DNA of 64,000 nucleotides from a virus, in IMG/VR virus record IMGVR_UViG_3300045988_100686, positions 1 through 64,000 of that record; one strand, given 5' to 3'. Positions 11,297 to 48,072 of the stretch are shown in pieces. The notes under the pieces were generated by a model, which was not told where the DNA came from, searched no databases, and worked only from the letters and a program-made list of their open reading frames with translations. The position numbers and the translations under genes are program-made. Within the stretch, counting starts at the first letter, position 1; the number at the start of each line of letters is the position of its first letter.

Positions 11297-13144
11297 TTAC
11301 CTCACATCATCGTTATTCATTGCAAGAGTTTTAGAAATAATAGTATTTGTGTATTCTTTGATTCTATCTTGTATAGTAGTATCAAAAAAAGTACTACCAT
11401 CGCCATTTTTTAGCCAAACATAGTTGTCTTCTTCCACAACTGTAGCTCCATCTGCTACATCTTTTAGATAATCGTCAAAAGATGTAGTCTCTCTCCAAAT
11501 CTTGCGTAAAGATTGAGTTACATAAGTTTTGTCGGTACCATAGTTATTCATAAGCCCAGGAATATCATCATTTGTTACAGGAGTTACAGATTCCCCTAGC
11601 ATATCTTTATATGTCTCTGCTAGCTTATCTGTATACTCTGATTCTACTATGGGATACGCTCCGGGACTCTGTTCAGTGTCGGAGTGACCACAATTAAATG
11701 TTACAGATGTAGTCCAGGACCTATCTGTTAGATTATGGGCTACGTTAGTTACATATCCATAGATATTAAGTCCATTCTCAGTAGTTTCTATGCTTGCCAT
11801 TGGAAACCCAGGAACAATGTAAGGATTGAAGTAGCATTCTAAACTCCCGCTTCTAGTAACATATCTCTGTCTAGCGAGTTCATACCTTGCTAATGCTGCA
11901 ATTGTTTGACCAATGCCGTTTAGCCTATCTACACCAGCACCTATAGACATTACGTAGTTTTCATCATCTCCAGATTGTTGGTTTTGCTTAGACTTAAGAA
12001 AGAGATAAATATCTGCACCCTTGTTTACATTGCTTACACGTATACCATTTCGCTCCTCAAATGCTGTAAGGTTCAGCACTGGATGACTCTTATCCGTTAA
12101 TGTAGATGGTGCTGGGTTTCCTGCCGTATCTTTATTCTGGTCTCCAAAAGATGTAATAAAAGTTGAGTACTTAGGTAGTCCATTTTTTTCACCTTCTAAC
12201 TTTGTTTCTTCAGTAAACATCATACAAGTAAGCGTAAATGGGGCTCCTGATTGTCCAGAGATCTCACCAATTGGATCAGTAGTCTGCAGTAACCGTGTTG
12301 GTTGTTCCTTATACGGGTTTGTATAGCTAATTTGCGACTTTAAGTTCGGAAACATCAGATTACAGGATGGTGCATTTACAAATAGTGTTTCTGGCTTTAC
12401 TACCATAACATAGTTATTTCGTAGATTAGGAATATAATACATTTGATGATAAAATTTATTCATGAAGTTACTCAAGTAATCATGAACTGACCACATTCCA
12501 TCCTCATTAAATGTTTGATTTGCTTTAGACTTAAATGCTAAGCTCTCTGCGAAAGACGCAAAACTCATTATTCCATAGTCTGTAATAAGATCACTAGGAA
12601 CACCTGCACCTGTAACTTGTGCCCCAGACTGAAGTGTATTAGGTGAAGTATTTCCACCCTTGTTTTCTAACTTCGTATCACTGGTTATTTTCCCTTCGCT
12701 GCGCCCATGCGCTTTTTGAGTGCTATTAAGAGTATCTCCACGTTGTAACCATGAATTAGAGAATGTTGACCCTTGGTGAATATCATACTGGTTTCTGAAA
12801 CTTTGTGCATCTAAGTCACCATCTACTTTAGTGCCTGGAGGATATACAGTAACTGTATTTCCATACGTATGTCCTCCTTGAACAGCTTCAGCCTTTGTCC
12901 AACACGCAATATCAATCTTTGTTCCATTGATAGCACTGCCTGTATCAGTCGCAAGATAGTTTCGTCCGTTTATTTTTACAATGGATCCAAGTGGAATCTT
13001 GTTTGGATCAACAGCTATCGTTCTGCCTGGTACCGCAGGAGAATTATCTGCAGATATTGCATCACCACTAGGTTTTGTTTCTGCAGGATTATTATATGTA
13101 TAGTGAGTAAACTCTACGTTGTTAAGTGTATACGGTTGTGCCAA
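11297..13144 (-). CDS. tail-associated peptidoglycan hydrolase with N-terminal 3D domain
   Basis: TIAVDPNKIPLGSIVKINGRNYLATDTGSAINGTKIDI matches the 3D-domain signature (VAVDP-IPLGS...DTGGAI-G-IDI). Confidence 0.65.
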   Translation of the reverse strand: MAQPYTLNNVEFTHYTYNNPAETKPSGDAISADNSPAVPGRTIAVDPNKIPLGSIVKINGRNYLATDTGSAINGTKIDIACWTKAEAVQGGHTYGNTVTVYPPGTKVDGDLDAQSFRNQYDIHQGSTFSNSWLQRGDTLNSTQKAHGRSEGKITSDTKLENKGGNTSPNTLQSGAQVTGAGVPSDLITDYGIMSFASFAESLAFKSKANQTFNEDGMWSVHDYLSNFMNKFYHQMYYIPNLRNNYVMVVKPETLFVNAPSCNLMFPNLKSQISYTNPYKEQPTRLLQTTDPIGEISGQSGAPFTLTCMMFTEETKLEGEKNGLPKYSTFITSFGDQNKDTAGNPAPSTLTDKSHPVLNLTAFEERNGIRVSNVNKGADIYLFLKSKQNQQSGDDENYVMSIGAGVDRLNGIGQTIAALARYELARQRYVTRSGSLECYFNPYIVPGFPMASIETTENGLNIYGYVTNVAHNLTDRSWTTSVTFNCGHSDTEQSPGAYPIVESEYTDKLAETYKDMLGESVTPVTNDDIPGLMNNYGTDKTYVTQSLRKIWRETTSFDDYLKDVADGATVVEEDNYVWLKNGDGSTFFDTTIQDRIKEYTNTIISKTLAMNNDDVR

Positions 13145-13155
13145 TGTTACTCACC

Positions 13156-14679
13156 TCATTTCAAATCATTAACAGCTATATAACCTGTTATCTTATGATT
13201 AAAACTTGTAGCAGTTGAAGGATCATGCAACGTCCTGCCACCATTGTAAGATGCCGCATAATTACCACCATTTCCATCACAGATTACAATATGGTTCAAG
13301 TCGTCTTCGACAACAATTCCATCTCCTGCACGCGGAACATATGAACCATCTGCGTCATGCCAAATATTTTTTTGGCGAGCTTCTTGCACCATAGATGGAA
13401 CAAAAGAAGAATCCCATTCAATACCTGCAGCATTCCAGCAAGTTTTAGTGTACATGGCACAGTCTGTAGCTGAAACACCATCTCCACCTAGTTTATAAGG
13501 TATTCCAAGTTTTGACTTAGCAGCATTTATTATTGCAAAACTTCTCGGCCCAGCCCCACCCGTGCCAACTTCTCCGTTAGCAATGAATTGCTTATATTGT
13601 ACTCCCTCAGATGATACTTTTACTCCTTCAGTATTTTTATAGTAGGTGGCAGGAGCTCCTCCACCAATATTATAAAATGGATCATTACTGCCGCTGTTTG
13701 CTGAGTAATTCTTCCCTTCCAGATCAGCAGGAAGTAACGCTGCATTTTTTGCAGTATCTGACACCCCATAAATTCTGTTAAGAATTTTGTAGCCATTAAC
13801 ATCGTTGCCGAGCTTTGACCAATACCACTTGCTTACGGCAGATGCATCTTTATACCCCTCTAAAATCTGTCGAAGAATACGGTATGTTAAATCAGCCATG
13901 CTTTTGTATTCTTTCCCTTCAATGATTTTACTAACTTGAGATATTTGTACCTTATTCATACCAGAAATGGTCTTAAATACAGTTTGGCCGATCATCTCGT
14001 AATCCTTCATGTAAAGATACTGAGCTGCTGCTTGGTTAACTATTTGCATAAGAGTCAAATATGCACTACTATGAATAGCATGAATAGTCAAATATGCTCC
14101 TGATGAATCAATTGAGTACGATATGGCGCTTAGCTCACCATCAAATAATAGTCTCCATTTATATATACCATTAGAATCCGGCATAAGATCTTTGTAAATT
14201 ATGTGAACCTTTGTTGTCTCTGGTAAATCACGCATAAAAGACGCCGCTGGTACAGTTATGGTAGCAGATGGCGGGCTTGTAACGCCATAGGATACTGCAG
14301 CAGCTGAATGTGGTACTTGTACGCCTTCTAAAAATACCTTCGTATCTACATAAAATACATTGGTGTCTGTGAAAGCCTGTGGCTTCGCCGCATCAGTTGT
14401 TGTTGACGCTGTTGTATTAGTGTTAGAAGCTGTTTTACTACTTACTTTAGGAATGGCATTTGCCTTTGCAGTGTCTACTGCGGCTGTAGATTTAGCAGTG
14501 GATAGTCGTGGTTCTGAAGCATGAGATGTAGACGTTGACTTACTACTGCTCAGTTCTTCTTGCTTTTTAAACACATACCCAGTGTCAGCTGCTTGTTGCT
14601 GTATTTTTTTCTCTCGTTCAACTATACGTTGTTGGCGAGCTTTTTCGTTAGCAGATAAGTTTGTAGGCTGAAAACTCAA
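13156..14679 (-). CDS. NlpC/P60-family cell-wall endopeptidase (tail lysin) with Ser/Thr-rich N-terminal region
   Basis: C-terminal GIPYKLGGDGVSATDCAMY...NHIVICDGNG gives the NlpC/P60 Cys and His positions. Confidence 0.65.
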   Translation of the reverse strand: MSFQPTNLSANEKARQQRIVEREKKIQQQAADTGYVFKKQEELSSSKSTSTSHASEPRLSTAKSTAAVDTAKANAIPKVSSKTASNTNTTASTTTDAAKPQAFTDTNVFYVDTKVFLEGVQVPHSAAAVSYGVTSPPSATITVPAASFMRDLPETTKVHIIYKDLMPDSNGIYKWRLLFDGELSAISYSIDSSGAYLTIHAIHSSAYLTLMQIVNQAAAQYLYMKDYEMIGQTVFKTISGMNKVQISQVSKIIEGKEYKSMADLTYRILRQILEGYKDASAVSKWYWSKLGNDVNGYKILNRIYGVSDTAKNAALLPADLEGKNYSANSGSNDPFYNIGGGAPATYYKNTEGVKVSSEGVQYKQFIANGEVGTGGAGPRSFAIINAAKSKLGIPYKLGGDGVSATDCAMYTKTCWNAAGIEWDSSFVPSMVQEARQKNIWHDADGSYVPRAGDGIVVEDDLNHIVICDGNGGNYAASYNGGRTLHDPSTATSFNHKITGYIAVNDLK

Positions 14680-15932
14680 TCATAGCTCCCCCTTCCTATT
14701 TTCCCGGAGAAATATCGTTTTCCATAGGATTTCCCTGTCAATACATTCAGTGCACCATGAACCTGATTGGTAACTGCTAGGGTTTTGTTAACTGTTTGCA
14801 TAGTTTTACTGTTCAATACAGAGTTTATCCCTTCTTGAACGCTTTGTACAAAGCTTTTCTTTTGACTTGCCTTGCCTACTTCTTTAGGATCTTTGGTTGT
14901 TTCTTTCTGTATCTCTGCGATCTTAGTGTCTGTAGATTCATTGTTTTTTACCTCTTCAACCGTGTTTTTTGGTTCAGTTACTGTCGTGCTATACCCATAT
15001 GCCTTATTTATTGGATGCTCCATTACAATAGCATTCATACTAAATGGAATAACGTTGTCTTGTTCTGAAGACAAGGACGCAGTAAACGAAATCGGATAGC
15101 ACTTGTAAGAACTAAAATCTGGAAACACCAAGTTCAACCAGCATCTATACTTAGCTAGTCTACTTGCACGCAGAAAATAACGATATGCATTGATAAACGC
15201 GAGAAACCAAGAGTTATCTCTACTTCCGTCAAATGGGAGGTATCCTGATATACTTACTACTTGTGGTTCTTGCCCTGCAAAAGTAGCAGCAAAGGAGTCC
15301 CCAACAGTAGGCATGATATGCTGTTTCTCCTGCATGTTTTCCTGTAGAGATAAAATGATTATACTAGTGTACCTATCAATTAACTGGTTGTACACTGCCT
15401 GTAAAACAGTTTGATCTTCACCTGAAATAGCTTCCGCGAGACCTGCAGTTTCTCCCTGGATTTGCATGTATGCACGTCGGGAATCATCATCAGATCCATC
15501 TATAAAGGTGAAATCTATAAGTCTACCAGAGCCCCTAGAGTACTTTGTACTAAGAGCCTGTGCAGCTGCACTCGCTTCTATAGCAGTATCAATACTTGAT
15601 GTAAGTGCTGCGACTGTTTCTTGAGTAGTAGTACTCATTGCTGCTTCAGCTTCAGAGGTTGTTCCATCACTTAATGTGTATGATTGATACGGGCTTCCAT
15701 TCCTATCTGCAGTACGATTGCCAGTTATATTCTGACTAATCATACCGTTAACAGCTTCAACTTCAGACTTTGATTTCAGTGTGCTATTGGTCATGCCCAT
15801 GAAATTAAAGTACTCAAGTTCGTCCTTTGTAACTTCTTGGTATTCATTAATTCCAACAGGTTTATACTTGCCAGTACCGGATCCTGAAGTAGCTGATACT
15901 ATATTTGTTGTATTACTTTTTAATATTGCCAT
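14676..15932 (-). CDS. hypothetical tail protein
   Basis: 418-aa ORF, 4-nt overlap with the downstream lysin gene. Confidence 0.5.
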   Translation of the reverse strand: MAILKSNTTNIVSATSGSGTGKYKPVGINEYQEVTKDELEYFNFMGMTNSTLKSKSEVEAVNGMISQNITGNRTADRNGSPYQSYTLSDGTTSEAEAAMSTTTQETVAALTSSIDTAIEASAAAQALSTKYSRGSGRLIDFTFIDGSDDDSRRAYMQIQGETAGLAEAISGEDQTVLQAVYNQLIDRYTSIIILSLQENMQEKQHIMPTVGDSFAATFAGQEPQVVSISGYLPFDGSRDNSWFLAFINAYRYFLRASRLAKYRCWLNLVFPDFSSYKCYPISFTASLSSEQDNVIPFSMNAIVMEHPINKAYGYSTTVTEPKNTVEEVKNNESTDTKIAEIQKETTKDPKEVGKASQKKSFVQSVQEGINSVLNSKTMQTVNKTLAVTNQVHGALNVLTGKSYGKRYFSGKIGRGSYD

Positions 15933-15944
15933 AATTAGTGATTG

Positions 15945-18900
15945 TTAATTTCTGGAGAATATCTCTCTTATCCATTTAGGGGTATATATAGGTTTTTGTT
16001 GATCCGCTAGTGTTCCTTTATTCTCAGGCTTGGTTGGCTTGTCTGTATTTTTTTCAACACTTTCACGAGCATCCTTGATTTCAGTATCACTGACCACACG
16101 TACTCGCAACCAGTTTTTACCGTCTTTACCTTGTTCAATAGCAGTATCAACTGCAGTTTTCATAACCTGGGCAGCATCCTGTTTCTTTTGCTGTACCCCG
16201 CCGCCTTCTCTAGCAGCAGCCAACATGGTATCCTGTACGATTGTTAAAGCCCTGTTTTGATCAGTTATTGTACCTCGTTTATGACCAAGTCTATCCTCTA
16301 GTTCCTCGTTGCTTAAGTTCTTTAATTCTTCTGCACGCTTTAAAAACGCAGAGGCAGTTGAGTTATGTGCTGTAAATCCGCCTTTATCAAGGAAACGCTT
16401 TGCCTCATCATTAGTCATTGTAGAAATTTGAGACTGTGTTATACCTGATATACCAAAATCTGCTACTTTAGCATCAATATCTTGATTGAATTTCGCAATC
16501 AGAGCAGCCTTAAAACTATCGGAATACTTTTTACCTGTATAGTCTACCTTTACTCTTTTTTTGCCAAATTTAGCAACTTTTTCTGCCTCATCTCCAAGTA
16601 CTGCAAGAACAGCTTGGTTCCGGCTTAATTCATTAATGTTTCGTATTTTGGATAAATCCGTTTCGCCGTTGGAAATATCTGTAAGTGCTTCTAAGAAAAG
16701 ACTTATTTGATCTGAGCTTTTTAGAGAACGACCAAGAGTTTCTAGTTTTTTTGGATCCAAACCTATATCATTCATTAATTTCATCCCAGCATCACCGTTA
16801 ACATCTATGCCAGCCATACCCTCAGGACCCATAAACTTAGATACGTTATCTAAAGAAATAACCCCCTGAGACGCATCTATAACTTTTTGGTAGTCTTTGT
16901 GGCCCACAGCACCTACAATGCCGGTTGCAGTACCATGTCCAAACATAGTCTGACTTGTTGCTGCCATTATTTGATCGGCAGTTACAGTTGAACCATCGGA
17001 CAGTCTCATGTTTCTAGCAACTTTTTCAGCTATGTCTCTAGAATTAGATGTTTTTAGTATCTCGAAAGCCTTATCCGTAGTCATATTCTTTTGATTCCAA
17101 GTTAAGTTATTTCCACGGATAGCATCTATATCTTCCATAGTTAACTTATTAGATATTTCTGATAGGCGTTTACGAGCTTCATTTCTATATGCTTCACTTG
17201 CATGTTCATCAAACCACTTTCCAGTACCAACGTATGGAAGTAGCGGGTTTTCATTGCCTTTAACATTATAGTATCTATCAAGGTCTTTTCGTGTTAAGCT
17301 TGCATCAGAGTATTTCTGTATTGCAACTTGTCCCTCTAATGCAGTTATTTTATTCTGGCTTCCAACTTTATTCCAGTAGCTAGCCATAGAGTCCTTTGCC
17401 CCTAACCAGGTTACATCTGCTAAAAAGTTATAGTCTTTAGTGTCACCAGTTGGTATTCCGTCTTGTTGTGCCATGCGTCTACTAAATCTAATGAAGTTTT
17501 TCCAACCACCAACAAATGCGTCTCCAAGCGTACTTCGTTTATCCATACGATCTAAGGCTTCTAGCCTATCCGCATTAGAAAACATTGCATTTTCATCTGG
17601 CTTATAGTTACTTTTTTGTAGGTCCTTAACAGCAGAATAGTATAGCTGTAAATCTACGCCTTCCAATGGCTTAGCTATTGCCGTACTAGTTCTGTAAGAT
17701 GTATCAAGAGCATTACTTGCAGCATCTGCAATAGATCTTGCTGGTCTTTCAATAAAAGTCTGATGTAATGCCCCTAAATTGCGTTCTATGTTCTCACCAA
17801 TGCTATCAACAAACCTTCCAAACCCTCTACCAGCCCTAGCATATTCTAGGCTACCTATTTGATATTCCTCTCTAGCTGTCCTATCTATGCCTGCTTGAAT
17901 TCTTGGGTTAAGTACTTTTAATGCTATCGCTTTAGCAGTATTTATATCTAGGCCTGGGCTTATCTGCGTTAAATGCACAGCAGCAAATGCTACCTTCTGT
18001 TCTAATGACGCATTCTTAGGTAACATTCCAAGAATATTCTTAAGTTCACTACGTAACTGTATCTCTAATAGTTTATCTAGGTCACCTTTTTCAGCAGCAC
18101 TAGCTATAATATTATTTTTTTCTGCTATAGACATAGCAATGCTACCTAGTCCGCCTTCCGTAATATTTTTAGCTGCTTGTCCTACTGCTCCCCAGTAGCC
18201 ACTATTTTCTATTGTTGCTTTATATTTTTCTAGATCAAAGCCAGTGTTTCCATTCCAACCAGCGTATAACATTGCGCCACCAATAGCACCGTTGTTTAAT
18301 AAATTAGCTTGTGTAGACAACATTTTGCCAGCTATCGCTTGAACACCACCACCTGCTGCAATTTCAGCTGGTGTAAGCATCCTTCTTTTTTCAAGCTCTG
18401 AAGTGTAAGCCAGGTTTCTTAATGCTGGATGAATGCCAACGAATGCCGGATTTCCATATTGTCCAAATGCTACTGAACTCATGGAAGCAGCTGTACTTAA
18501 TAGTGTATTTGCTTGAACACCAAGAGCTCTACCGTAGCTAAAGGCGTCTGTACCTATAGATTGAATAGCACTTATGTTACGGAAACTATTAAGACCCATG
18601 TCTTTTAGCTGTTTTACAACTTGCATGGTCTCTTGTACGTCTTTACTACCTAGAACACCGGTTAAAAACTTAACAACATTACTAGCTGCGGAAACTTGCT
18701 TAACGAGTTCCTCTGGAGTTTCACCCTGAAACATATTTCCCTGAAGCCCCATCATAGTAATATCTCTGAAACCTGACATATTTAATCTTGGTTCCAAGTG
18801 AGATGTTCTATAAAGTTCCTCATATGCTAAGTTTTCGATTCCACCAACTGCGCGCTGTGCTTCCTTCATTGTAAAAGGAGATCTAAAGCGAGCAGACATA

Positions 18901-19568
18901 CGCATCATTGCAGCTACATCGTTATTGTGTCTAACACTTGCTTCTACAATTGGATCTACTAGTAGATCAACGGCAGCACCAGCTGCAGCACCGAATGGAA
19001 GTCCAACGGCAAAGCGACCAATTGTACCTAGCATTCCGGTTCCCATACCCATAGCCCCGCCTATGGCTCCACCAGCTTGAGCTCCTGCAAACATTCCTGC
19101 AGCCTCTTTGGCAAGTGCTCCAACAGTGGCTACACCAGTACTAGAACCGCGCAATGCCATGCCAGTTTGACGTTCACTCCAAAATTCATTTTGGTTAACA
19201 TTGTATTGCTGGTTTGCAGCCATAAGATTCATCAAACTGTTTGATCCAGCGTATTGCTGGTAAGCTTGACTTAGACTACCATTATAAAGTCCACCTGGTC
19301 CTCTAGGAATCCACTGACTTGCTATATTTATTGGTGCAAGCTGGTTGCTATTGGATGCCATAGCTGAACCTATCTTAGTACCAACATTAGCCATAGTCTG
19401 TGACATAGAAGCCAATGTAAGATTAAGCGTTTGGAAGCTAAATGCGAGTGAATCCCTAAAAGATCTAAGCGTGCTAGATAGATCACTTTGAGCCTGAGCT
19501 GCTGGTAACGCAGATGAATATACAGTTGTATTAAGTGTTGTGGAGTCTAGCTGACCACTTAATTCCAT
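15945..19568 (-). CDS. tape-measure-like / large internal tail protein
   Basis: 1207 aa with Gly/Ala-rich hydrophobic stretches (GAIGGAMGMGTGMLGTIGRFAVGLPFGAAAGAAV) and extended helical regions. Preceded by a small chaperone-sized ORF. Confidence 0.5.
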   Translation of the reverse strand: MELSGQLDSTTLNTTVYSSALPAAQAQSDLSSTLRSFRDSLAFSFQTLNLTLASMSQTMANVGTKIGSAMASNSNQLAPINIASQWIPRGPGGLYNGSLSQAYQQYAGSNSLMNLMAANQQYNVNQNEFWSERQTGMALRGSSTGVATVGALAKEAAGMFAGAQAGGAIGGAMGMGTGMLGTIGRFAVGLPFGAAAGAAVDLLVDPIVEASVRHNNDVAAMMRMSARFRSPFTMKEAQRAVGGIENLAYEELYRTSHLEPRLNMSGFRDITMMGLQGNMFQGETPEELVKQVSAASNVVKFLTGVLGSKDVQETMQVVKQLKDMGLNSFRNISAIQSIGTDAFSYGRALGVQANTLLSTAASMSSVAFGQYGNPAFVGIHPALRNLAYTSELEKRRMLTPAEIAAGGGVQAIAGKMLSTQANLLNNGAIGGAMLYAGWNGNTGFDLEKYKATIENSGYWGAVGQAAKNITEGGLGSIAMSIAEKNNIIASAAEKGDLDKLLEIQLRSELKNILGMLPKNASLEQKVAFAAVHLTQISPGLDINTAKAIALKVLNPRIQAGIDRTAREEYQIGSLEYARAGRGFGRFVDSIGENIERNLGALHQTFIERPARSIADAASNALDTSYRTSTAIAKPLEGVDLQLYYSAVKDLQKSNYKPDENAMFSNADRLEALDRMDKRSTLGDAFVGGWKNFIRFSRRMAQQDGIPTGDTKDYNFLADVTWLGAKDSMASYWNKVGSQNKITALEGQVAIQKYSDASLTRKDLDRYYNVKGNENPLLPYVGTGKWFDEHASEAYRNEARKRLSEISNKLTMEDIDAIRGNNLTWNQKNMTTDKAFEILKTSNSRDIAEKVARNMRLSDGSTVTADQIMAATSQTMFGHGTATGIVGAVGHKDYQKVIDASQGVISLDNVSKFMGPEGMAGIDVNGDAGMKLMNDIGLDPKKLETLGRSLKSSDQISLFLEALTDISNGETDLSKIRNINELSRNQAVLAVLGDEAEKVAKFGKKRVKVDYTGKKYSDSFKAALIAKFNQDIDAKVADFGISGITQSQISTMTNDEAKRFLDKGGFTAHNSTASAFLKRAEELKNLSNEELEDRLGHKRGTITDQNRALTIVQDTMLAAAREGGGVQQKKQDAAQVMKTAVDTAIEQGKDGKNWLRVRVVSDTEIKDARESVEKNTDKPTKPENKGTLADQQKPIYTPKWIREIFSRN

Positions 19569-19591
19569 GTGTGTTCCCTCCTAATAAGAGA

Positions 19592-19915
19592 TCACAGCAC
19601 CTGGTTTGGTACACCTGTTCTCTTATATTTATTAACTAATTCTGAATACTTGAACTTGTATCCAACGTTGTCAATATGGTACTCTTTGAACTCATTCGTT
19701 GGCACAACAAATTCGGCGTTTATTTTGTCAGTATCTGTAATATAAATAGCATCTACCTTATCAGGAATATTAAAATCAGGAATAGTAATATATTCCTCCC
19801 CCAGAATTAAAGAAGCACTATTTATCCAAAGATCTAGTCTATTCTTTAATACGTTGTATTGCCCAATGTTGGTTTTTAACGCTAATTGTGACTTTGGTGT
19901 TATACTAATAATCAT
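19592..19915 (-). CDS. small hypothetical protein (position of a tail assembly chaperone)
   Basis: 107-aa ORF immediately upstream of the tape-measure-like gene. Confidence 0.4.
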   Translation of the reverse strand: MIISITPKSQLALKTNIGQYNVLKNRLDLWINSASLILGEEYITIPDFNIPDKVDAIYITDTDKINAEFVVPTNEFKEYHIDNVGYKFKYSELVNKYKRTGVPNQVL

Positions 19916-19979
19916 TATGCTTACTCCCTATTAATTTTTATAGTTATATTATACCTATAGCATATAGACATAAGAAAAT

Positions 19980-20008
19980 AGACCCGAATGCGGTGCATTG
20001 TCGGGTCT
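19980..20008 (-). terminator. rho-independent terminator for the minus strand
   Basis: 8-bp stem AGACCCGA/TCGGGTCT with a T-rich tract on the minus strand. A TATAAT-containing promoter-like sequence for the next minus gene follows at about 19935-19965. Confidence 0.6.
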
Positions 20009-20175
20009 AGATCTTTTCCTGCAATAGCCAGGAAATGCTTTATGTCACTAGTAGCCTTTGTGTTGTGGCTGGTGTCCGAAGTTATGGGTGAAGAAAGGAG
20101 GTGGGAAGAACGCCCATAGCCTTATAGTTTGCAAAGGAGGGAGATGCATTCTATTAAGCATTGTATAGTATACTA

Positions 20176-21384
20176 CTAGTTACTATTATATTTATTCATA
20201 CGGCGATCAAGAACCGTGGCAAATGGCATTCCTTGAAGGTACGGATATTTATTGAGAAGCGTTGTAGGCTGTGTTATCATTTTGATTTTCTTAGCCTTAT
20301 CTTCATCAGATAAACCCGAGTCACCCTGAATTTCTGCAATAGCTCTCTGAGCTCTTATTTTACCTAGGTTCTCAGCACCGTACATAAACGGTATAGTTGC
20401 TGCTACGGTCAACTTGTCTGACCTGTTAGCATTGGAAATATAGTTATTAAACATTGTGGATAGCTTAGAGTGTACTTCTGGATGATCTGGGTACAACTCT
20501 TGTAGTCTATTAAGGCTACCTGTTACACTTGAAACCAATGGTCCTGTTTTTTGGAGATAGTTACGTGTACCAACATAGGCCCCAGCACTTAACCCTGTCA
20601 TACCAAGTCCTAGTGCCAGTTTCTTTTTGTCATCCCTGTTTTTATAAGCATAGTATCCAGCTAATGGAGTTGTTAATAGAGTCGCATTATTTAAAATTGC
20701 AGCTCCTGTTAACTTTTGTAGATCCTTTTGAGATACTGTTGAAGCTGCGCTATCTAACAATGCTCCAAATTGAGGATCTTTTAGTGCTTGTTTGTTCTTA
20801 AGTGATGTATATAAAGCTGCAGCTCCTAACCCAGCACCAAGAACTAGGGCTCCAAGCATACGTTTCCTATACTTAGAAGTTTCTGGAGTGCTCGGATTAT
20901 CCATGTACTCGTTAACCATCTGCACTGGTGGCACTGTTTTTTTAGCCTTTATATAAAAGTTCTCTTTCTCATCAAACTTGGCATCGTAAGGAGCATTATC
21001 CTCATTAGTTGCTTGGGCTAACTCTGTATAATCTTCGAGTCCTCTGACAACCTTGTTGCGAGTACTAGGAGATACTTTGTCTTTTAACTTTGAAGCTGCT
21101 AATAAAATAAATGGTGAAGCTGTAAGTACAGTATTCTTGACACCTTTTAGCTTATCAATCTTTCCTTCGAGTGTTGCATCCATTGAGTCAAAGTATCCAG
21201 GGTCATCTTCTTTGGCTGCAACTTTTTTTGCTTCTCGATTGTACTCTGCTATCTGGTTATCTATTGCTTTTCTATAATTATTATAGCATAAGGCAGACTC
21301 TGTTGTCAAGCCCCCAAGAACAAGTGCACCAGTTAAACTTTTGGCAGTCTCTGGGTGCCTTTTAAGCGTAGATATAATATTCAT
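20176..21384 (-). CDS. hypothetical membrane-associated virion protein
   Basis: 402 aa with several Gly/Ala-rich hydrophobic segments. Confidence 0.5.
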   Translation of the reverse strand: MNIISTLKRHPETAKSLTGALVLGGLTTESALCYNNYRKAIDNQIAEYNREAKKVAAKEDDPGYFDSMDATLEGKIDKLKGVKNTVLTASPFILLAASKLKDKVSPSTRNKVVRGLEDYTELAQATNEDNAPYDAKFDEKENFYIKAKKTVPPVQMVNEYMDNPSTPETSKYRKRMLGALVLGAGLGAAALYTSLKNKQALKDPQFGALLDSAASTVSQKDLQKLTGAAILNNATLLTTPLAGYYAYKNRDDKKKLALGLGMTGLSAGAYVGTRNYLQKTGPLVSSVTGSLNRLQELYPDHPEVHSKLSTMFNNYISNANRSDKLTVAATIPFMYGAENLGKIRAQRAIAEIQGDSGLSDEDKAKKIKMITQPTTLLNKYPYLQGMPFATVLDRRMNKYNSN

Positions 21385-21386
21385 TA

Positions 21387-21836
21387 TTACTCCATGTAGG
21401 CAGGTCTACGAAAATTTTCTATTAATTGTTGTGTAAAAGATGGTTGTGACTTAGCTGCTTCATTGATGGAAGCTCCTAGAAATCTGTTTCCTGAGTTAGC
21501 AGGAATAGTTAACTCTGTAGCTGCATATTTGTATTGTTGTTCAAAGATGTGAGCTCGTGTTGATGCATCTAACCCAAGAGCATTAGCAATCTTTGTTGCA
21601 GAAATTGTAGGATGGTTGTCTCTGTCTGGTGTATTCATTGGACCATCTTGAGCCATGTACTCTTGCCAATCATAGTAGTCAGGACCGTCTGCTGGCTGGT
21701 TATTAGCAGGCTTGCGTGTGTCCATGGGAATATTGTCATCCATAGCGGCATCTTTTTCTAAATCTTGAGTGTCTGTATGAAAATTAGGGAGTATTCCTGA
21801 TTTATAAATATCAATATGCATTAAAATAACCTCCAT
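21387..21836 (-). CDS. hypothetical protein
   Basis: Track ORF. Confidence 0.45.
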   Translation of the reverse strand: MEVILMHIDIYKSGILPNFHTDTQDLEKDAAMDDNIPMDTRKPANNQPADGPDYYDWQEYMAQDGPMNTPDRDNHPTISATKIANALGLDASTRAHIFEQQYKYAATELTIPANSGNRFLGASINEAAKSQPSFTQQLIENFRRPAYME

Positions 21837-21887
21837 AGGATTCTCTTGTACTAAGAATTATACCTATGGAGGTTGTTGTATTTATGT

Positions 21888-22739
21888 TTAATTATACTTG
21901 GTACTTACTTCGTCTAACTTGGCAAGCAGGGTAACTGTAGAATCATGAAGTTCCTTTAGGTCATTCATGAATTTCTCGAATAGTGGTACAGTTTCATACA
22001 GCTCATCACTGGATTTCTCTGAAAACTGGTAGTCTAAAACAGGCTGGATGGCTGTATGTAGCTGATATCCAATAATGTCCTGAATTAACTCCTTGTCTTC
22101 CACACTTAGTGGTTCTCGGTGTAGTATTGGGTGCCCGCCTTGTAAAAACAGACTCAACGTAGTACCAAGAGTTTCACATGCATCACCAACTAGTAAGTCA
22201 ATGTACTGCTGACTATAGTTATGACAACTAGCATCTGCGTATCTACCATCTTTTTGATCGGAAGTATCCGTTAGAGGATCAGTAGTAGCTATGTAATCCT
22301 TGGTAACTATATTTTTAAGGACGTTCTCAATGGATGTATTTATCAATTCTGGAGTGTTGACTCTGATATCACCTAAGAATGCTATGAACTCCGGGGAATC
22401 CCATGGATATGCCGGTGTTATAGGGAAATTTGGACCGTAAGGCTCAAGTTTGTTTCTGGAATACGCCAACTCTGCTGCTACTGTGCGCACCTTTCCTTTC
22501 TCTGTCTCCAGCTTTTGTAAAGTATCATTTATATGATCTTTTAACTGATAAAGAGTAGTGGATGTTTCAGCAAGAGATTTAAGAGCTTTATTTTCCCAAG
22601 TAGAGTACTCATCCAATAACGGTTTTACATCAACTTTCTTGAGAGCCTTGGATGACTCCTCTGTTAACTCCTTGCTATCCTCTTTATGATCACCTGGTTT
22701 TATTTTATTTAAGAGTGACTTTATTGTTGTCATAATCAT
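21888..22739 (-). CDS. hypothetical protein
   Basis: Start reassigned to the ATG at 22739 (GAGGAG 7 nt upstream). The track start at 22805 would overlap the upstream gene. Confidence 0.45.
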   Translation of the reverse strand: MIMTTIKSLLNKIKPGDHKEDSKELTEESSKALKKVDVKPLLDEYSTWENKALKSLAETSTTLYQLKDHINDTLQKLETEKGKVRTVAAELAYSRNKLEPYGPNFPITPAYPWDSPEFIAFLGDIRVNTPELINTSIENVLKNIVTKDYIATTDPLTDTSDQKDGRYADASCHNYSQQYIDLLVGDACETLGTTLSLFLQGGHPILHREPLSVEDKELIQDIIGYQLHTAIQPVLDYQFSEKSSDELYETVPLFEKFMNDLKELHDSTVTLLAKLDEVSTKYN

Positions 22740-22749
22740 TAAGATCTCC

Positions 22750-23088
22750 TCATGGTACTTTAATTGTACTACTTGGTGAAGCTGCAAGCATTGCTGCAAT
22801 TTCATTCAGCGTTTGATGTGTCTTTTCAACGAATGCTGAATCGTTGTTCTTGCGCAATTCCTTTGTACCAGGCAATACAAGATTTATATATTCATCAGTA
22901 AGTTCTTCAATACGTTTAGATAATTTAGGATCTAAGGCTAGCCCGCTTGCAAGTACATTAATTAGAGTCTCAAATATCCGGAACTGTTCTCTTCTTAACC
23001 ATACTGCCTGGCACAGTGAATCTTGAAGAGTTCCTATTTCATGTACAGGACACCCAGATATATACATCGCTGCTCTAGTTAAGTACAC
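22750..23088 (-). CDS. hypothetical protein
   Basis: Track ORF. Confidence 0.45.
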   Translation of the reverse strand: MYLTRAAMYISGCPVHEIGTLQDSLCQAVWLRREQFRIFETLINVLASGLALDPKLSKRIEELTDEYINLVLPGTKELRKNNDSAFVEKTHQTLNEIAAMLAASPSSTIKVP

Positions 23089-23096
23089 CGGGCTAT

Positions 23097-23861
23097 TTAA
23101 AAATCTTTGATGAGTTCCTCAAAGTTCTTGGAGATATATTCCACCTTTTTGAAAAACGCTGCACGACGTTCCCACAAGTAGTTTATTAGAACAGAGGGAA
23201 GAGTTTGCAAGAACTCAGCACGTTCTTCCATTGACTTACGAAGTTCACCAGGAGTACCGCGATTGATTGGTTTGAAGTGGTTACCACCAAACTGTTCAAT
23301 GTTCATACTGAGAACATACAGTGAGTTAACAAGTGCACCAGTATCACGCAGTGAACCTGGAGTAAGATGTTCTTCAGTGAGTTTCATAGCCATTTGGTCT
23401 TCCCAGAAAAACTGAGTACGAAATACTACAGTAGCTCCTCGAATGGAAAAAGTCTCTCGAATAATTCCCTTCATAAGCAAAGAATCTAATAAAGGTAATA
23501 TTTCATCTTTTGTGAATTCAGTTTTTTCTGTGTCTGTACCAACTTTACTGAATTCCACTTTTTTAGTAGTATTAGTTGTATGTTTTGCTTCCTCATCCTC
23601 AACTGTTGGTTCATTATGTACCACAGTAGTAAGCGGAGATTCTATATCATTAGATACAGAATAATTTTTAGGCTCCTTTTTGTTTAGTATCTTTAACATA
23701 GTCTCATACCCCTCGTCAGTAGACGCCTCCTTGGGGACATAGGGCTTGATTGCCATATTCTCCTCTTCACTAGTATCAGGTTTATCACTAACTGCACCAG
23801 CGTTATCGATTGGCACTGTACGTGCAAAGGGGTCAAAATAGTTATTTGAATGTTCACTCAT
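23097..23861 (-). CDS. hypothetical acidic protein, first gene of the minus-strand operon
   Basis: GGAGG ribosome-binding site; downstream of a perfect minus-strand promoter. Confidence 0.5.
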   Translation of the reverse strand: MSEHSNNYFDPFARTVPIDNAGAVSDKPDTSEEENMAIKPYVPKEASTDEGYETMLKILNKKEPKNYSVSNDIESPLTTVVHNEPTVEDEEAKHTTNTTKKVEFSKVGTDTEKTEFTKDEILPLLDSLLMKGIIRETFSIRGATVVFRTQFFWEDQMAMKLTEEHLTPGSLRDTGALVNSLYVLSMNIEQFGGNHFKPINRGTPGELRKSMEERAEFLQTLPSVLINYLWERRAAFFKKVEYISKNFEELIKDF

Positions 23862-23910
23862 TGTAACTGCCTCCGTAAAACTAAATTGGTAGTATTTCCT
23901 TTATGACATA

Positions 23911-23939
23911 ATTATAACAGTAGTCAAACATAAAGTCAA
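23911..23939 (-). promoter_or_regulatory. minus-strand sigma-A-type promoter TTGACT-17-TATAAT
   Basis: Minus strand reads TTGACT ttatgtttgactactgt TATAAT. Confidence 0.7.
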
Positions 23940-23969
23940 GTAAAAATGGTTATATTAAATTATCTGACA

Positions 23970-24290
23970 ACTATCTACACCTTTCTACACCTTTCTACAC
24001 CTAATTTTTTTAAAAGTGTAACCGCCGAAAGCCTTATGGGGCAAGGGTTTCATTGTTTAATAGTGCTCTGGTTACACTTTCTACACTTTTTTGAATACAC
24101 ATATACATATATACGTATACGTATATACTTATATACTTAAAACTCCTCGCGCACATATAATATATATATTTTAGTGTAGAAAGTGTAACTACTACTACTA
24201 CAGTGGCTGAAAGCCTTACAGGGAAAGGGTTCCAGCGGTTACACTTTTTCAAAAAACAAGTGTAGAAAGGTGTAGAAAGGTGTAACCAGT
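23970..24290. repeat. ~320-bp composite palindrome with 9-bp iterons, nested inverted repeats and a central alternating (TA)n core; candidate origin of replication
   Basis: Iterons TCTACACCT x3 at 23974-24003 and inverted GTGTAGAAAG copies at 24259-24287. IR GGTTACACTTTCTACAC 24070-24086 pairs with 24173-24188. IR AAAAGTGTAACCGC 24011-24024 pairs with 24234-24247. Direct repeat GAAAGCCTTA(T/C)(G/A)GGG(C/A)AAGGGTT. Core 24095-24170 is ACATATACATATATACGTATACGTATATAC. Confidence 0.6.
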
Positions 24291-24325
24291 AGACTATATT
24301 TTCTGAAAAATCTCTTCCATAAAAA

Positions 24326-24337
24326 TGGTATAAGTAT
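24326..24337 (+). promoter_or_regulatory. extended -10 motif TGGTATAAGTAT (copy 3)
   Basis: Exact motif match. Confidence 0.4.
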
Positions 24338-24367
24338 ATTAGGGGCACTCTGTCACCCAAAATTTTA

Positions 24368-24396
24368 TTGACATGGTAAGTGTAGAGTGCTATTCT
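24368..24396 (+). promoter_or_regulatory. sigma-A-type promoter TTGACA-17-TATTCT
   Basis: Read directly upstream of the 24422 gene. Confidence 0.6.
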
Positions 24397-24421
24397 TTTA
24401 GTAAAGAAAGGAGAGGTTTTA

Positions 24422-25522
24422 ATGCATAAATCACTAAGAACATGGACACTACATGTTCAGTACAGGATTAAACCTGATCAGCGCAGGTACTACAAATATC
24501 AAAGACAATACAAAGGTCCATTAAATGGTTGTGCACTATGGCATAATCAAGATAACAGCTTAATAGAAATTGACCCACGTAATGCTCACATATTAGTATC
24601 TTTTAAGCTACCAAATAAAAAAATAAAGCAAATAGATATTAACAATGTATCTATTGAATGCTCTAACCCTACAAAAAAAATGATTTATTTGCTAAACAAA
24701 CATAACTACTTAAGCATAGAGAACGATGTCATCTATGCCACTACACTTACAAATAGACGTATCAAGTTGATAGACCTAGATACTGTGTGTAAAATACATT
24801 ATATCTGTAGGTTAAACACCGTATTTATAAATCGAATGGAGGAGATACTGGATTACCCCAATGGAATACATGGTACACCAGTATTTATTGACGAAGAAGA
24901 CTTTTCAGATGAAGACTACTTTTATGCTTACAAGGAGCAGTTAAGAATTGATAATATTACGGATTCACTACGACGTGCTTTTCCCTATAATTCTGAATTA
25001 CTAGCTGCTATTCCAAAATTCAATAGTCTACCAAAAGAGTTACACAATTTATATGCATCATCATCAGCACTGGATTCACTGTATGATTCAATATCTAGTA
25101 ATTCAAAGAGCATAATATGGAATCCTGCAAAACGAAAACCAATAAGAGATCTGATGTATACTAAGTATGTCAATCAATTGTTGCATGTATCAAAGTTATA
25201 TCGAATCATAAATGAACTAAATTCATCACTAACTATCATTAACTATCTACTATCTGAGTTACTAAAGTATATATCATCACCACGCGTAGTATTCTGTGAC
25301 TCAAAGGTGTTGCAAAATATGGCTTGCATTCGATATAAAGACATATCAATTGCTATGTCTAGACTTCATGGGATCATTAAAGAGCTAGAAGGTCCTATAA
25401 CAGAAGCATATCAAGAGATACGTGTAGCAGACTTTAAAAAGAATACAGTATGGCGTAAATATATGCTTACAGTGTTAAAACAAGACAAATTGGGTGAGGT
25501 GAACAAAGATGGGGATAATTAA
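24422..25522 (+). CDS. hypothetical early protein
   Basis: 366-aa ORF with GGAGAGG ribosome-binding site. Confidence 0.55.
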   Translation: MHKSLRTWTLHVQYRIKPDQRRYYKYQRQYKGPLNGCALWHNQDNSLIEIDPRNAHILVSFKLPNKKIKQIDINNVSIECSNPTKKMIYLLNKHNYLSIENDVIYATTLTNRRIKLIDLDTVCKIHYICRLNTVFINRMEEILDYPNGIHGTPVFIDEEDFSDEDYFYAYKEQLRIDNITDSLRRAFPYNSELLAAIPKFNSLPKELHNLYASSSALDSLYDSISSNSKSIIWNPAKRKPIRDLMYTKYVNQLLHVSKLYRIINELNSSLTIINYLLSELLKYISSPRVVFCDSKVLQNMACIRYKDISIAMSRLHGIIKELEGPITEAYQEIRVADFKKNTVWRKYMLTVLKQDKLGEVNKDGDN

Positions 25523-27534: not shown

Positions 27535-27681
27535 CCCATGGGATGCGGCGGCTGGGTTGCCGAATGGCAGTAGGTTGCGGACTTGGCAACGGTAGGCCCA
27601 TTATTGTTATGGACTGATGAAACAGGCCTGCATAAAATCCAAGAATTCCCACGTCGCCGCTTTTATAAAGGAGGAAGAAAA

Positions 27682-28545
27682 ATGAATGTTAAATTAATGA
27701 ACGATCTGGTTGTAAAGTATAGCTTAGAAAAAATTGGGCAATTCGCTTCAATCTGTAAGAACGGAGAGTTGCCACCGCGCGAACAACTCATTAAAATTGG
27801 TAAATCTTGTATGAGACAAGGTCATTTTAGTACATGCCGTGGAATTATGTGGAACTTTCAAATCACAGGAATTTCAAGAGTATGTTCACATCAACTCGTG
27901 CGTCATCATGTCGGTGTTGCTATTAATCAGGCCAGCAATGTTTACCAAGAAGCTAACACCAATGTTGTACTACCATATACAGTACAAGGAGCTTGTGGTA
28001 ATGACACCGATTTAGAGCATGAAATCAAAGATCTTTTTGATAAGAGTCAACGAATCTATGCAAAATTGCGTGAACGTGGTATTAGCACGAGTGACTCTAG
28101 GTACTTGCTGCCACAGGGACTGGAGACTAGTATCAACATTGCGTTAACCCCAGAGGCACTGATCCATCTATGTCATGAACGTTTATGTTCTAAAGCACAA
28201 TGGGAGATTCGTGGTGTAGTACAACGAATGGTAAAACAAATTATAAAAATTGAACCATTCTGGGAAGAGCTATTAGTGCCTAAATGTATGTATCTGCATG
28301 GATGTCCGGAAGCACTAGGATGTGGTTACTATAATTCCAAGGTAAACATGACTAATGTGGGGGAACCTGTAGCTCACATTGAACAGAGACTAAATGTATT
28401 TAAATGTGACTCCTGCGGACGCCAGTTGATGCACAAAGATGACGATCAAGTTCCAATTGTTAAAGTTGGCGATAAGCAGTGGTGCAGGGAATGCTATAGA
28501 AAACACAATGAAGAAATAACAAGAGGTACAAATGATTACTATTAA
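27682..28545 (+). CDS. thyX: flavin-dependent thymidylate synthase ThyX with C-terminal zinc-ribbon extension
   Basis: ATG at 27682 after AAGGAGG. ThyX core motifs: RHH-x7-S (RHR-x7-S family signature, one substitution), SRYLLP, conserved AQWEI. C-terminal CDSCG...CRECY. The track start at 27583 is not supported. Confidence 0.7.
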   Translation: MNVKLMNDLVVKYSLEKIGQFASICKNGELPPREQLIKIGKSCMRQGHFSTCRGIMWNFQITGISRVCSHQLVRHHVGVAINQASNVYQEANTNVVLPYTVQGACGNDTDLEHEIKDLFDKSQRIYAKLRERGISTSDSRYLLPQGLETSINIALTPEALIHLCHERLCSKAQWEIRGVVQRMVKQIIKIEPFWEELLVPKCMYLHGCPEALGCGYYNSKVNMTNVGEPVAHIEQRLNVFKCDSCGRQLMHKDDDQVPIVKVGDKQWCRECYRKHNEEITRGTNDYY

Positions 28546-34662: not shown

Positions 34663-35544
34663 ATGGAGTGGACAAAGTATAATTTAAATAATTATGAAGC
34701 GTCTACTGGTGTTGAAGACAACATCGTAGAAGAATGTCAGGAAGACACTTGGACTATTCTTGATGCATTAAATATTGCTGTAAAGAAAATAAATGCAGAT
34801 GAAGTAACACCTGCAGAGTATTTTAATATTTTAAAATCACAAAAACATAAAATATCTAATAACGCATTAAATAAGAGTTACGATGCTTGTTTACAGTTAG
34901 CAGATAAATATGCTAAATTAGGTCAGTTGGCTGGGCTAAAACGCATTGGATTCCAAATGGCATGTATTATTCAGGAACGTAAACTCATTGAAACAGGAAT
35001 TACAACCTACGTATATAAAGAAGACGTGATGACTTATATTGATAAGGTAAAAGATAAAAGCATAAAAATCTGTTATCTTAAAGACTATGAACGCGAGATC
35101 CCGGATGAAGTAAGTGAGACAATTCTGTCAGTTAAAGATATCTTTGATGAATTCGTTGTTATCTACACAGACTATACCATTAAGGAAACCATGAAAACAA
35201 AGGCATTCATAGAACACAAAGAAAAAGACCCTATAGTATTTGGTATTTTTACTGACAAAGAGAACATTTTCACCTTAGATCGTCTGTATTACATTGCTGA
35301 TTGGGTAGACGAATACTGTGATCTAACACTTGACAAACTTGTAGAAGAATACAAAACTATGACCGATAGACACATCACAAGAACCATGTCTACACCACTT
35401 ACACTTGAGGATGTTAAAGAGAAGATTAAGTGCCTTGAGGCAAAGGATGCGTCTAGTGGAGTCTATAAGGTTACAGATTATACACCAAGTAAAAATAAGA
35501 CGTTCTTTGAAAAAGTATCTACGTTCTTTAGCAGAAAGGATTAA
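34663..35544 (+). CDS. hypothetical protein
   Basis: Track ORF. Confidence 0.5.
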   Translation: MEWTKYNLNNYEASTGVEDNIVEECQEDTWTILDALNIAVKKINADEVTPAEYFNILKSQKHKISNNALNKSYDACLQLADKYAKLGQLAGLKRIGFQMACIIQERKLIETGITTYVYKEDVMTYIDKVKDKSIKICYLKDYEREIPDEVSETILSVKDIFDEFVVIYTDYTIKETMKTKAFIEHKEKDPIVFGIFTDKENIFTLDRLYYIADWVDEYCDLTLDKLVEEYKTMTDRHITRTMSTPLTLEDVKEKIKCLEAKDASSGVYKVTDYTPSKNKTFFEKVSTFFSRKD

Positions 35545-48037: not shown

Positions 48038-48072
48038 TAGAATTGCAGACTAAAAAGAAAGGTTGTGAGCAT

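Follow-up and report, generated by a model that had tools for sequence, protein, structure and literature searches.

Replication origins in which short iterons surround an AT-rich region, and which are served by a helicase encoded on the same replicon, have been described for the staphylococcal pathogenicity islands (SaPIs). These are the closest described counterparts of the element analyzed here, an intergenic palindrome of ~320 bp at ~23960–24290 in a stretch of viral DNA (IMG/VR record IMGVR_UViG_3300045988_100686). This stretch, referred to as the window, comprises 64,000 nt of a phage genome of ~150 kb, and all coordinates are window positions. The SaPI Rep protein combines the functions of initiator and helicase, needs no ATP to bind and melt the origin, and recognizes penta- or hexanucleotide iterons through a winged helix in its C-terminal domain (PMC9371898). 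The SaPI origin, as characterized in PMC9371898 (citing Ubeda et al. 2007, 2012) and PMC7581432, contains 6 to 12 short iterons (5–8 bp) and an AT-rich region near its center, with at least 2 opposite-facing iterons on each side, and is located directly downstream of rep (PMC9371898). Two Rep hexamers are thought to load themselves (PMC9371898; PMC7581432), and SaPI5 has its primase fused to Rep (PMC9371898). This module of initiator-helicase, primase, and origin has been extended to other mobile elements and phages, and Rep has been likened to SV40 T antigen and papillomavirus E1 (PMC7581432). A precedent of a different kind is given by the origins of Ceduovirus (c2), which are located in non-coding DNA where the early and late modules diverge, are flanked by promoters, and are highly conserved within a type; when placed on a plasmid, they need no phage proteins to work, but appear to depend on a non-coding transcript from PE1 (PMC7150918).

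Set beside the SaPI origins, the phage element has 12 iterons, split around an AT-rich core and with opposite-facing inner pairs, and the phage encodes a Rep-like initiator-helicase. Its position differs, with the rep-like gene lying ~24 kb away. We put the probability at roughly 60% that the element is a bidirectional replication origin, or one of several, at which a predicted fusion of a primase with a Rep-type helicase would load itself. A preliminary description, made from the sequence alone, had called the region origin-like. This view has been strengthened, short of proof, because the iterons are under selection, the layout persists among relatives, the geometry is independent of the promoters, and the phage encodes an initiator of the SaPI-Rep type.

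The repeated sites and the core

The unit from which the element is built is a short motif, YTACAC (GTGTAR), that occurs 12 times in 311 bp (23975–24285), compared with 1.1 times per kb elsewhere in the window, which amounts to a local enrichment of ~30-fold. Six of the sites are on the plus strand and 6 on the minus strand, and their mirror symmetry about 24130 is exact to the base pair. In terms of GTGTA orientation, one reads from left to right 3 leftward sites, 1 rightward site, H1, 2 leftward sites, the core, 2 rightward sites, (CTA)4, H2, 1 leftward site, and 3 rightward sites, with H1 and H2 denoting 2 palindromes. The individual features are:

~23960–24290: element overall, ~320 bp, iteron arms mirrored around an AT-rich core
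23974–24002, plus strand: outer-left iteron triple, three TCTACACCT at 10-bp spacing, with YTACAC cores at 23975, 23985, and 23995
24003–24025: A/T tract (AAT7A4), then one opposite-facing site, AAAAGTGTAACCGC, at 24012–24025
24027–24051: H1, imperfect 25-bp palindrome, GAAAGCCTT-N7-AAGGGTTTC
Between H1 and the inner-left pair: left variable spacer, 18 nt
24070–24087, plus strand: inner-left iteron pair, GGTTACAC-T-TTCTACAC, plus-strand sites adjoining the core
24088–24172: core, 85 bp, 78% A+T, the predicted DNA unwinding element
24173–24189: inner-right iteron pair, AGTGTAGAAAGTGTAAC, minus-strand sites mirroring 24071–24087
24189–24200, plus strand: (CTA)4, followed by CAG up to 24203, with no mirror counterpart in the left arm
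24209–24233: H2, second imperfect palindrome, GAAAGCCTT-N7-AAGGGTTCC
24235–24248: right single site, GCGGTTACACTTTT, mirroring 24012–24025 and followed by an A/T tract
24259–24287: outer-right triple, AGTGTAGAAAG-GTGTAGAAAG-GTGTAACC

This repeat pattern is far above chance. All 6 copies of TTCTACAC in the window are inside 23983–24277; GGTTACAC has 6 copies as well, 4 of them within the element, and a count of 6 was reached in none of 100 shuffles. The 23-nt sequence GAAAGCCTTAYRGGGMAAGGGTT, representing an element of 23–25 nt, is present once in each arm (24027–24049 and 24209–24231) and nowhere else in the window. In addition, the arms share 3 perfect inverted repeats: an inner one of 17 nt that abuts the core (24071–24087/24173–24189), an outer one of 17 nt (23986–24002/24268–24284), and a third of 14 nt (24012–24025/24235–24248). 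Taken at full length (23976–24052/24208–24284), the arms of 77 nt are 81% complementary, and the single-strand fold of 23967–24292 reaches −72.5 kcal/mol (z = −11.2). All repeats named in the preliminary description are present where it had placed them, including the direct repeat that it reported for each arm, which is restricted to the 2 positions given above. Its mirroring of the left iterons on the right holds for the triple as such, but the right triple consists of two GTGTAGAAAG and one GTGTAACC; likewise, of its nested perfect inverted repeats, the one of 14 nt was confirmed and the inner and outer ones measure 17 nt.

The core had been described as an alternating purine-pyrimidine, TA-rich tract of 75 bp. 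It is indeed TA-rich, but it is 85 bp long and not a single alternating tract, as alternation extends over at most 34 nt (24095–24128). This is the longest such run of the window, the runner-up being 15 nt. The core is also asymmetric: its right side carries a GC-rich CCTCGCGCAC (24145–24154), next to a (TA)n tract at ~24155–24169, and the least stable 20-mer of the whole window is at 24155, within the core. In duplex stability, the 85-bp core as a whole is the third least stable locus in the window. A perfect 20-bp palindrome (24108–24127) is located off-center and is not conserved by relatives.

The hairpins that H1 and H2 could form have little stability (−2 to −9 kcal/mol), and hardly any in L018, one of the related loci considered below. 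These folding energies speak against selection of H1 and H2 as stable hairpins; a palindromic site for a dimeric accessory protein fits better. Searching the element against Rfam returned only sub-threshold, hairpin-driven matches, and no tRNA was found in the region. Two open reading frames (ORFs) that run across the element (23946–24140 on the plus strand and 24034–24360 on the minus strand) were rejected as spurious, considering that the related loci L003 and L009 lack the ATG and that (TA)n indels break the frames.

Conservation, promoter geometry, and assembly breaks

To compare the element between genomes, loci L001–L011 were found through homologs of the adjacent 366-aa protein (65%–93% identity), and are syntenic; more distant relatives, including L015, L016, and L018, were reached through the left-flank gene (62%–66% identity). 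The alignment consists of 6 full-length intergenic regions. The related contigs are 147–152 kb long. No close relatives were found among GenBank phages, IMG/VR, or GTDB genomes, and the helicase is otherwise common only to 2 unannotated faecal fragments.

In the most divergent pairs, the intergenic region is 84% identical, while the third codon positions of the flanking genes are only 56%–61% identical. The blocks that are invariant in the 6 relatives are the iterons, the promoter hexamers, AAATTATCTGACAACT (23957–23972), and a 60-bp block (24144–24203) in which the rightmost part of the core, TCCTCGCGCACATATAAT(AT)nTTTT, is followed by the inner-right iteron pair and (CTA)4. For the remaining iterons, the invariant positions are 23974–24000, 24012–24025, 24070–24092, 24234–24248, and 24250–24287. 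The variable parts are H1/H2, the left spacer, and the center-right of the core, whose length ranges from 84 to 89 bp through changes in the length of (TA)n. As judged from this alignment, strong purifying selection acts on the iterons and on the core-proximal block. H1 and H2 vary in sequence between relatives, with the CCTT/AAGG stem and the internal mismatch being retained. In the sub-lineage of L003, L009, L012, and L014, H2 is flipped, including its internal mismatch and loop; the H1/H2 sub-element is direct between the arms in the lineage of the window, and truly inverted in the flipped sub-lineage.

The layout of the element extends to the distant relatives. L018 retains the order of 3 direct sites, 1 inverted site, a palindrome, 2 inner sites, and (TA)n, with every site being GGTTACAC, and L015 and L016 contain three CTACAC at ~10-bp spacing. 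The iterons of relatives are thus of the TCTACACC-containing type or, as in L018, GGTTACAC-only. Given the sites in these 3 loci, YTACAC can be taken as the recognition core, and the architecture outlasts a change of iteron.

The element is situated in a gap of 560 bp between the edge of a minus-strand gene at 23861 and the first plus-strand gene at 24422. The gap also contains the following promoters and promoter-like motif:

23939..23911, minus strand: leftward sigma-70-type promoter, TTGACT-17-TATAAT, with a TG upstream of the −10 and 11 of 12 consensus matches
24326–24337, plus strand: extended −10-type motif TGGTATAAGTAT, putative phage promoter class, invariant in relatives
24368–24396, plus strand: rightward sigma-70-type promoter, TTGACA-17-TATTCT, for the plus-strand block from 24422

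The leftward promoter confirms the perfect TTGACT-17-TATAAT that had been reported on the minus strand at 23911–23939. Its hexamers are invariant in the 6 relatives, with L015 and L018 having an equivalent TTGACA-17-TATAAT/TAATAT; those of the rightward promoter are invariant too, with a variable spacer. Between the leftward promoter and the first iteron, there are 35–36 bp in the close group, compared with 49 bp in L015 and L018, and the gap to the rightward promoter is 82–85 bp. Within the arms, the positions of the sites are invariant across the 6 full-length loci. Considering that the internal geometry is fixed while the distance to the promoters shifts, the element acts as an autonomous module.

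This geometry is relevant to the explanation that the element serves transcription control only. Here, the array and H1/H2 would bind phage regulators, for example the 430-aa product of a gene at 55836–57128 (with a possible winged helix), the 366-aa neighbor, or HU, and the resulting nucleoprotein complex would switch expression between the tail/virion operon on the minus strand and the early block on the plus strand. The p4/p6 complex of phage phi29 at the A2c, A2b, and A3 promoters is a model for such switching. In favor of this explanation, the element falls exactly between 2 divergent promoters that are conserved, and the sites of each outer triple, being 10 bp apart, share one face of the helix. 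The center of the outer-right triple is ~57–77 bp upstream of the position where transcription from the 24326 promoter probably begins, a distance suitable for an activator. Furthermore, the A-tracts and a gene for an HU-like protein would suit an architectural complex, and origins and regulatory regions often coincide. However, the sites keep clear of all −35 and −10 hexamers, coming no closer than 35 and 82 bp to the 2 sigma-70-type promoters, and the phasing to the promoters is not conserved, with the leftward distance shifting by 13–14 bp and the rightward one varying between 82 and 85 bp. The motif clusters at no other promoter in the 64 kb, and the other 4 promoters of the TGGTATAAGTAT class are without iterons. 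In addition, with sequences close to consensus, the 2 flanking promoters would be expected to work without an activator, and 12 sites combined with an invariant AT-rich core and (TA)n exceed what known switches use. We therefore consider transcription control as the sole function unlikely, although it is the alternative that we take most seriously. The 2 functions are not mutually exclusive, and transcription control could be an additional role of an origin.

Exact copies of the 12-mer TGGTATAAGTAT are found at 589, 24326, 42572, and 54825, and a copy with 1 mismatch at 8023. The 5 copies of the motif TGGTATAAGTA(T/A) are all intergenic and on the plus strand, just upstream of plus-strand genes or a tRNA, and 2 of them share an upstream ATTCCTAAAAT. 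This motif is probably a phage promoter class, of the extended −10 type without a canonical −35. On the other side of the element, the minus-strand operon (11297–23861) leads into tail, tape-measure, and baseplate genes, and the promoter above it is of the near-consensus host type, conserved even in distant relatives. Such a host-type promoter on late genes is unexpected, given that the phage encodes a sigma factor of its own (38161–39105).

About half of the retrieved contigs, from many independent samples, terminate inside the element. Contigs entering it from the right are L006, L007, L008, L010, L012, and L014, whose ends correspond to window positions 24105, 24153, 24220, 24234, 24255, and 24292; those entering from the left are L015, L016, and L018. 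Because the ends are scattered, they reflect assembly failure in the palindromic (TA)-rich stretch and not a physical end of the DNA, and short-read assemblies can be expected to break at the element. A hairpin telomere or fixed DNA end was rejected on account of the scattered contig ends, together with the off-axis, non-conserved palindrome. One locus, L011 (a 6.4-kb scaffold; 3740–4000), shows a clean deletion of everything between the two GTGTAACC sites, which may have arisen by slippage in vivo or as an artefact of assembly or slippage.

Arrays of short repeats in direct and inverted orientation make up partition sites and some pac sites. As the element has a comparable build, and as many contigs end within it, we considered a role in segregation or packaging, either as a centromere-like parS/parC array or as a pac-type terminase region. 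This appears very unlikely: the contig ends are spread over more than 190 bp and approach from both sides, no gene for ParA, ParB, ParM, ParR, or terminase was found beside the element or among the scanned proteins of the window, and an AT-rich core has no role in such models. The least probable explanation, in our estimation, is that the element is a substrate for site-specific recombination, that is, a protelomerase resolution site or an invertible promoter segment. The (TA)nCG(TA)n palindrome between large inverted repeats, the H2 that is flipped between lineages, and the frequent assembly breaks would all agree with recombination. However, the palindrome centers (24114.5 and 24117.5) are 12–15 bp off the arm axis at 24130, the 20-bp palindrome is not conserved, and the asymmetric core has the same orientation in all 6 complete relatives. 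Moreover, the neighboring genes showed no domain of a recombinase or protelomerase, and the core contains no convincing promoter. A protelomerase target of the telRL type was rejected on the combination of the off-axis and unconserved palindrome, the lack of a recombinase domain nearby, and the scattered contig ends.

Candidate initiator and proposed course of initiation

No DnaA boxes (TTATCCACA, at most 1 mismatch) were found in 20996–25510, and the window as a whole contains 25, with 22 expected. The absence of DnaA boxes fits an initiator encoded by the phage. A DnaA-dependent theta origin, of the type of oriC and many plasmids, was rejected, as there is no DnaA-box cluster beside the unwinding element. 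Two genes in the window encode proteins that could act on the element:

48043–51096, plus strand: fusion of primase and initiator-helicase, 1017 aa, candidate iteron binder
39806–40072, plus strand: HU-like protein, 88 aa, whose orthologs carry PF00216 Bac_DNA_binding

The 1017-aa protein begins with a Zn-ribbon and Toprim DnaG-type primase (~1–360), continues with a helicase that resembles SaPIbov1 Rep (~430–800), and ends in a C-terminal part (~800–985) that consists of a helical bundle and a winged-helix-like module. Its Pfam matches are DUF927, Toprim_2, and Zn_ribbon_DnaG. When compared by sequence to the PDB with phmmer, it matched 8tch (8e-7), and a profile of 19 homologs matched the Aquifex DnaG primase 2au3 (1.4e-10) as well as 8tch (2.6e-8). 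The AlphaFold (AF2) model of the protein has a pLDDT (predicted local distance difference test) of 80.4, and contains a strand/helix/helix/beta-hairpin module at 889–982 with a pLDDT of ~85. Foldseek returned 8tch, the SaPIbov1 Rep, as the top match of this model (E 5.7e-16; TM score 0.65, normalized to the whole target), followed by the DnaG primase 2au3, the SCCmec Cch helicase 5dgk, and the SaPI5 PriRep 7ola. No repeat cluster is present next to the rep-like gene itself.

The preliminary description had proposed another binder, the 430-aa product of 55836–57128, as initiator-like. This was not borne out: no matches were found for it in Pfam, PHROG, or the PDB, and no initiator homology was detected; relatives number 11 among 1.84 billion representatives, and the hints of a winged helix are sub-threshold (E 0.013–0.014). 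Its ORF contains a tandem array of ~6 copies of an 18-bp unit (56837–56973), encoding a NEQHVA repeat that forms an (NEQHVA)n linker. The array is missing from the L019 and L020 orthologs, and no AT-rich stretch adjoins it. Because orthologs lack it, the array represents a recent lineage-specific expansion and not a conserved cis element, and for the same reason it fails as a rival origin locus. We accordingly rejected an origin inside the initiator gene, of the kind associated with lambda O or replisome organizers, based on the unconserved array, the lack of an AT stretch, and the lack of homology. The 1017-aa primase-Rep fusion is the better candidate binder. The 366-aa neighbor was set aside as a binder, having no matches in Pfam, PHROG, or the PDB and an AF2 model that is unusable (pLDDT 47.5). 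The HU-like protein is, by its family, a possible architectural cofactor.

From the anatomy, statistics, conservation, and window-wide uniqueness of the element, and from the presence and fold of the Rep-like initiator, all of which were observed here, we infer that the protein binds the sites, that the core melts, and that replication starts at this locus. The 1017-aa protein would act as a DnaG-type primase fused with a self-loading initiator-helicase of the SaPI-Rep type, recognizing the YTACAC iterons via its C-terminal winged-helix-like domain, with one oligomer assembling on each six-site arm. The A/T tracts, possibly together with the HU-like protein, would bend the DNA, and H1/H2 may hold an accessory dimer. 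The 85-bp (TA)-rich core would melt between the inward-facing inner iteron pairs, which may be helped by negative supercoiling behind the RNA polymerases that leave both divergent promoters. Two helicase rings would load in opposite orientation, the fused primase would supply the first primers, and these would be extended by the adjacent family A polymerase. The roles that we assign to the A-tracts, H1/H2, HU, and transcription, and to (CTA)4 below, are likewise proposals.

A further possibility concerns the first primers. Firmicute DnaG primases initiate at the template d(CTA), and then d(TTA) (PMC2978363). Both iteron variants contain CTA or TTA, and the invariant (CTA)4 is possibly a primase start site. 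We regard this as a lead only, considering that an exact (CTA)4 is also present at 58308 and that these trinucleotides are common. In the most far-reaching version of our proposal, the element would be a complete, self-contained initiation module, with recognition, melting, and first priming in one 320-bp palindrome that is also the early/late switch. Each arm would then wrap one Rep-like hexamer, bent by the A-tracts and with a second protein on H1/H2; divergent transcription would supercoil the DNA, opening the (TA)n core or extruding a cruciform; and (CTA)4, together with the CTA or TTA in every iteron, would provide dedicated start sites for the fused DnaG-type primase. We consider this extended version improbable. 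If true, it would make the element a bacterial-virus counterpart of an origin of the herpes simplex virus (HSV) or SV40 type.

Several observations weigh against the interpretation as a replication origin. The winged-helix assignment is derived from the predicted order of secondary structure elements and a whole-chain fold match, not a match at the domain level. The rep-like gene, which ends at 51096, is ~24 kb from the element, and is directly followed by the polymerase gene. The core, for all its low stability, is not unique within the window in either A+T content or stability. The iterons are invariant across close relatives, which leaves no co-variation of protein and site to compare. If the L011 variant is real and viable, the core and the inner iterons are dispensable. 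The 64 kb analyzed are part of ~150 kb, and another iteron-bearing or AT-rich locus could be present in the remaining ~86 kb. Finally, the cumulative GC skew has its minimum at ~24 kb, but the skew follows gene orientation at all 4 strand switches, including those of a plus-strand island at 8–11 kb, within a minus-strand region, in which it is positive, and the minimum is fully accounted for in this way. Since the skew tracks gene orientation at every switch, it provides no evidence for an origin, and the position at the strand switch, which the preliminary description had cited, does not stand as independent support.

The gene content of the window is phage-like, including a family A polymerase, ThyX, a sigma factor, SNF2 helicases, and 8 tRNAs, and its promoters and ribosome-binding sites look Firmicute-like. 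The family A polymerase (51011–53803) has UDG (uracil-DNA glycosylase)-like and 3'-5' exonuclease domains, and is ~25% identical to polymerases of SPO1-like Bacillus phages. Its UDG-superfamily domain is N-terminal, and a ThyX (Thy1) homolog is encoded at 27583–28545; together, these may hint at an unusual thymidine/uracil metabolism or DNA modification. Two other loci stood out. The second most repeat-dense locus of the window is a non-coding region at 620–1270, between a plus-strand ORF (43–588) and a minus-strand ORF (1291–1791), with 4 copies of TTTGTAGAGAGTTCTCTGCACTATTTT at spacings of 165, 166, and 165 bp. Each copy contains a 6-bp inverted repeat (CAGAGA-GT-TCTCTG) and a TATAAT-like box, and is bracketed by its own inverted repeat of 24–40 nt (78%–96% complementary) that encloses ~105–114 nt. 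No match near the gathering score of any Rfam family was found in this region. The copies could be structured-RNA genes in tandem, promoter cassettes that invert, or a repeat element of another kind. In the plus-strand block, a 293-aa protein (34663–35544) matches PHROG 10081, "transposase" (E 2.5e-67), and by this match may belong to a mobile element inserted in the phage genome.

Comparison with known origins

Almost no uncultured large phage has a known replication origin. If our interpretation is correct, a lineage of gut-metagenome phages of ~150 kb offers both a defined cis element (320 bp, 12 sites) and a defined protein, the primase-Rep fusion, as its candidate initiator. The self-loading helicase mechanism of SaPI and SCCmec would then not be confined to small satellites and cassettes, but would extend to a large phage, with a fused primase of the DnaG type and not of the AEP (archaeo-eukaryotic primase) type. 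The element would also be a natural target for origin-based phage engineering or for Per-type (origin-decoy) resistance.

With the SaPI origins, as described for SaPIbov1, SaPI1, and SaPI5 in the sources cited above, the phage element shares short iterons (12, against 6–12 in SaPIs), arranged in 2 sets that flank a central AT-rich region (85 bp in the phage) with at least 2 opposite-facing sites per side. Neither has DnaA boxes, and in both cases a helicase of the Rep type, whose C-terminal domain is winged-helix-like, is encoded on the replicon itself, the primase fusion being paralleled in SaPI5. The differences are in placement, with the phage element being ~24 kb from the rep-like gene and the described SaPI origins immediately downstream of theirs, and in the fused primase, which is of the DnaG/Toprim type in the phage, whereas the primases of SaPIbov1 and SaPI5 are of the AEP type (PMC7581432). 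The phage arms are moreover two-tiered, with an outer triple, an inverted site, and an inner pair, and are supplemented by the 25-bp palindrome and A/T tracts. The phage element is ~320 bp long and exactly mirror-symmetric, and its host replicon is a phage of ~150 kb compared with an island of 15 kb.

The c2 origins of Ceduovirus provide a tested precedent for the position between divergent modules; PMC7150918 does not present them as iteron arrays placed symmetrically about an AT core. In the phage studied here, tandem rightward promoters (24326 and 24368, 40 bp apart) are located outside the element, and no promoter reading into the core was found.

In phage P4, ori and crr are bound by the alpha primase-helicase, and contain octamer iterons in direct and inverted orientation and an AT-rich stretch. 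The alpha protein combines a primase, a helicase, and a C-terminal origin-binding domain in one polypeptide, as is predicted for the 1017-aa protein. P4 differs in being bipartite, with ori and a distant crr, and the structure of P4 alpha was absent among the 50 Foldseek matches listed, the best of which were SaPIbov1 Rep and Cch.

The SV40 core origin with large T antigen, the papillomavirus origin with E1, and HSV oriS and oriL with UL9 are palindromic origins that are recognized by initiator-helicases. As in the phage element, short dyad-symmetric sites flank an A+T-rich center between divergent transcription units, and the initiator is the helicase, loading as 2 opposed rings, as we propose for the phage. 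There is no relation in sequence or lineage, and the recognition domain of T antigen and E1 is N-terminal, making this a functional analogy only. Taken together, the element most likely belongs to a known class, that of iteron-bearing, AT-rich origins for a self-loading initiator-helicase, of which it would be a further example and not a new principle; it stands out by an unusually elaborate palindromic build in two tiers, and comes from a previously uncharacterized phage lineage.

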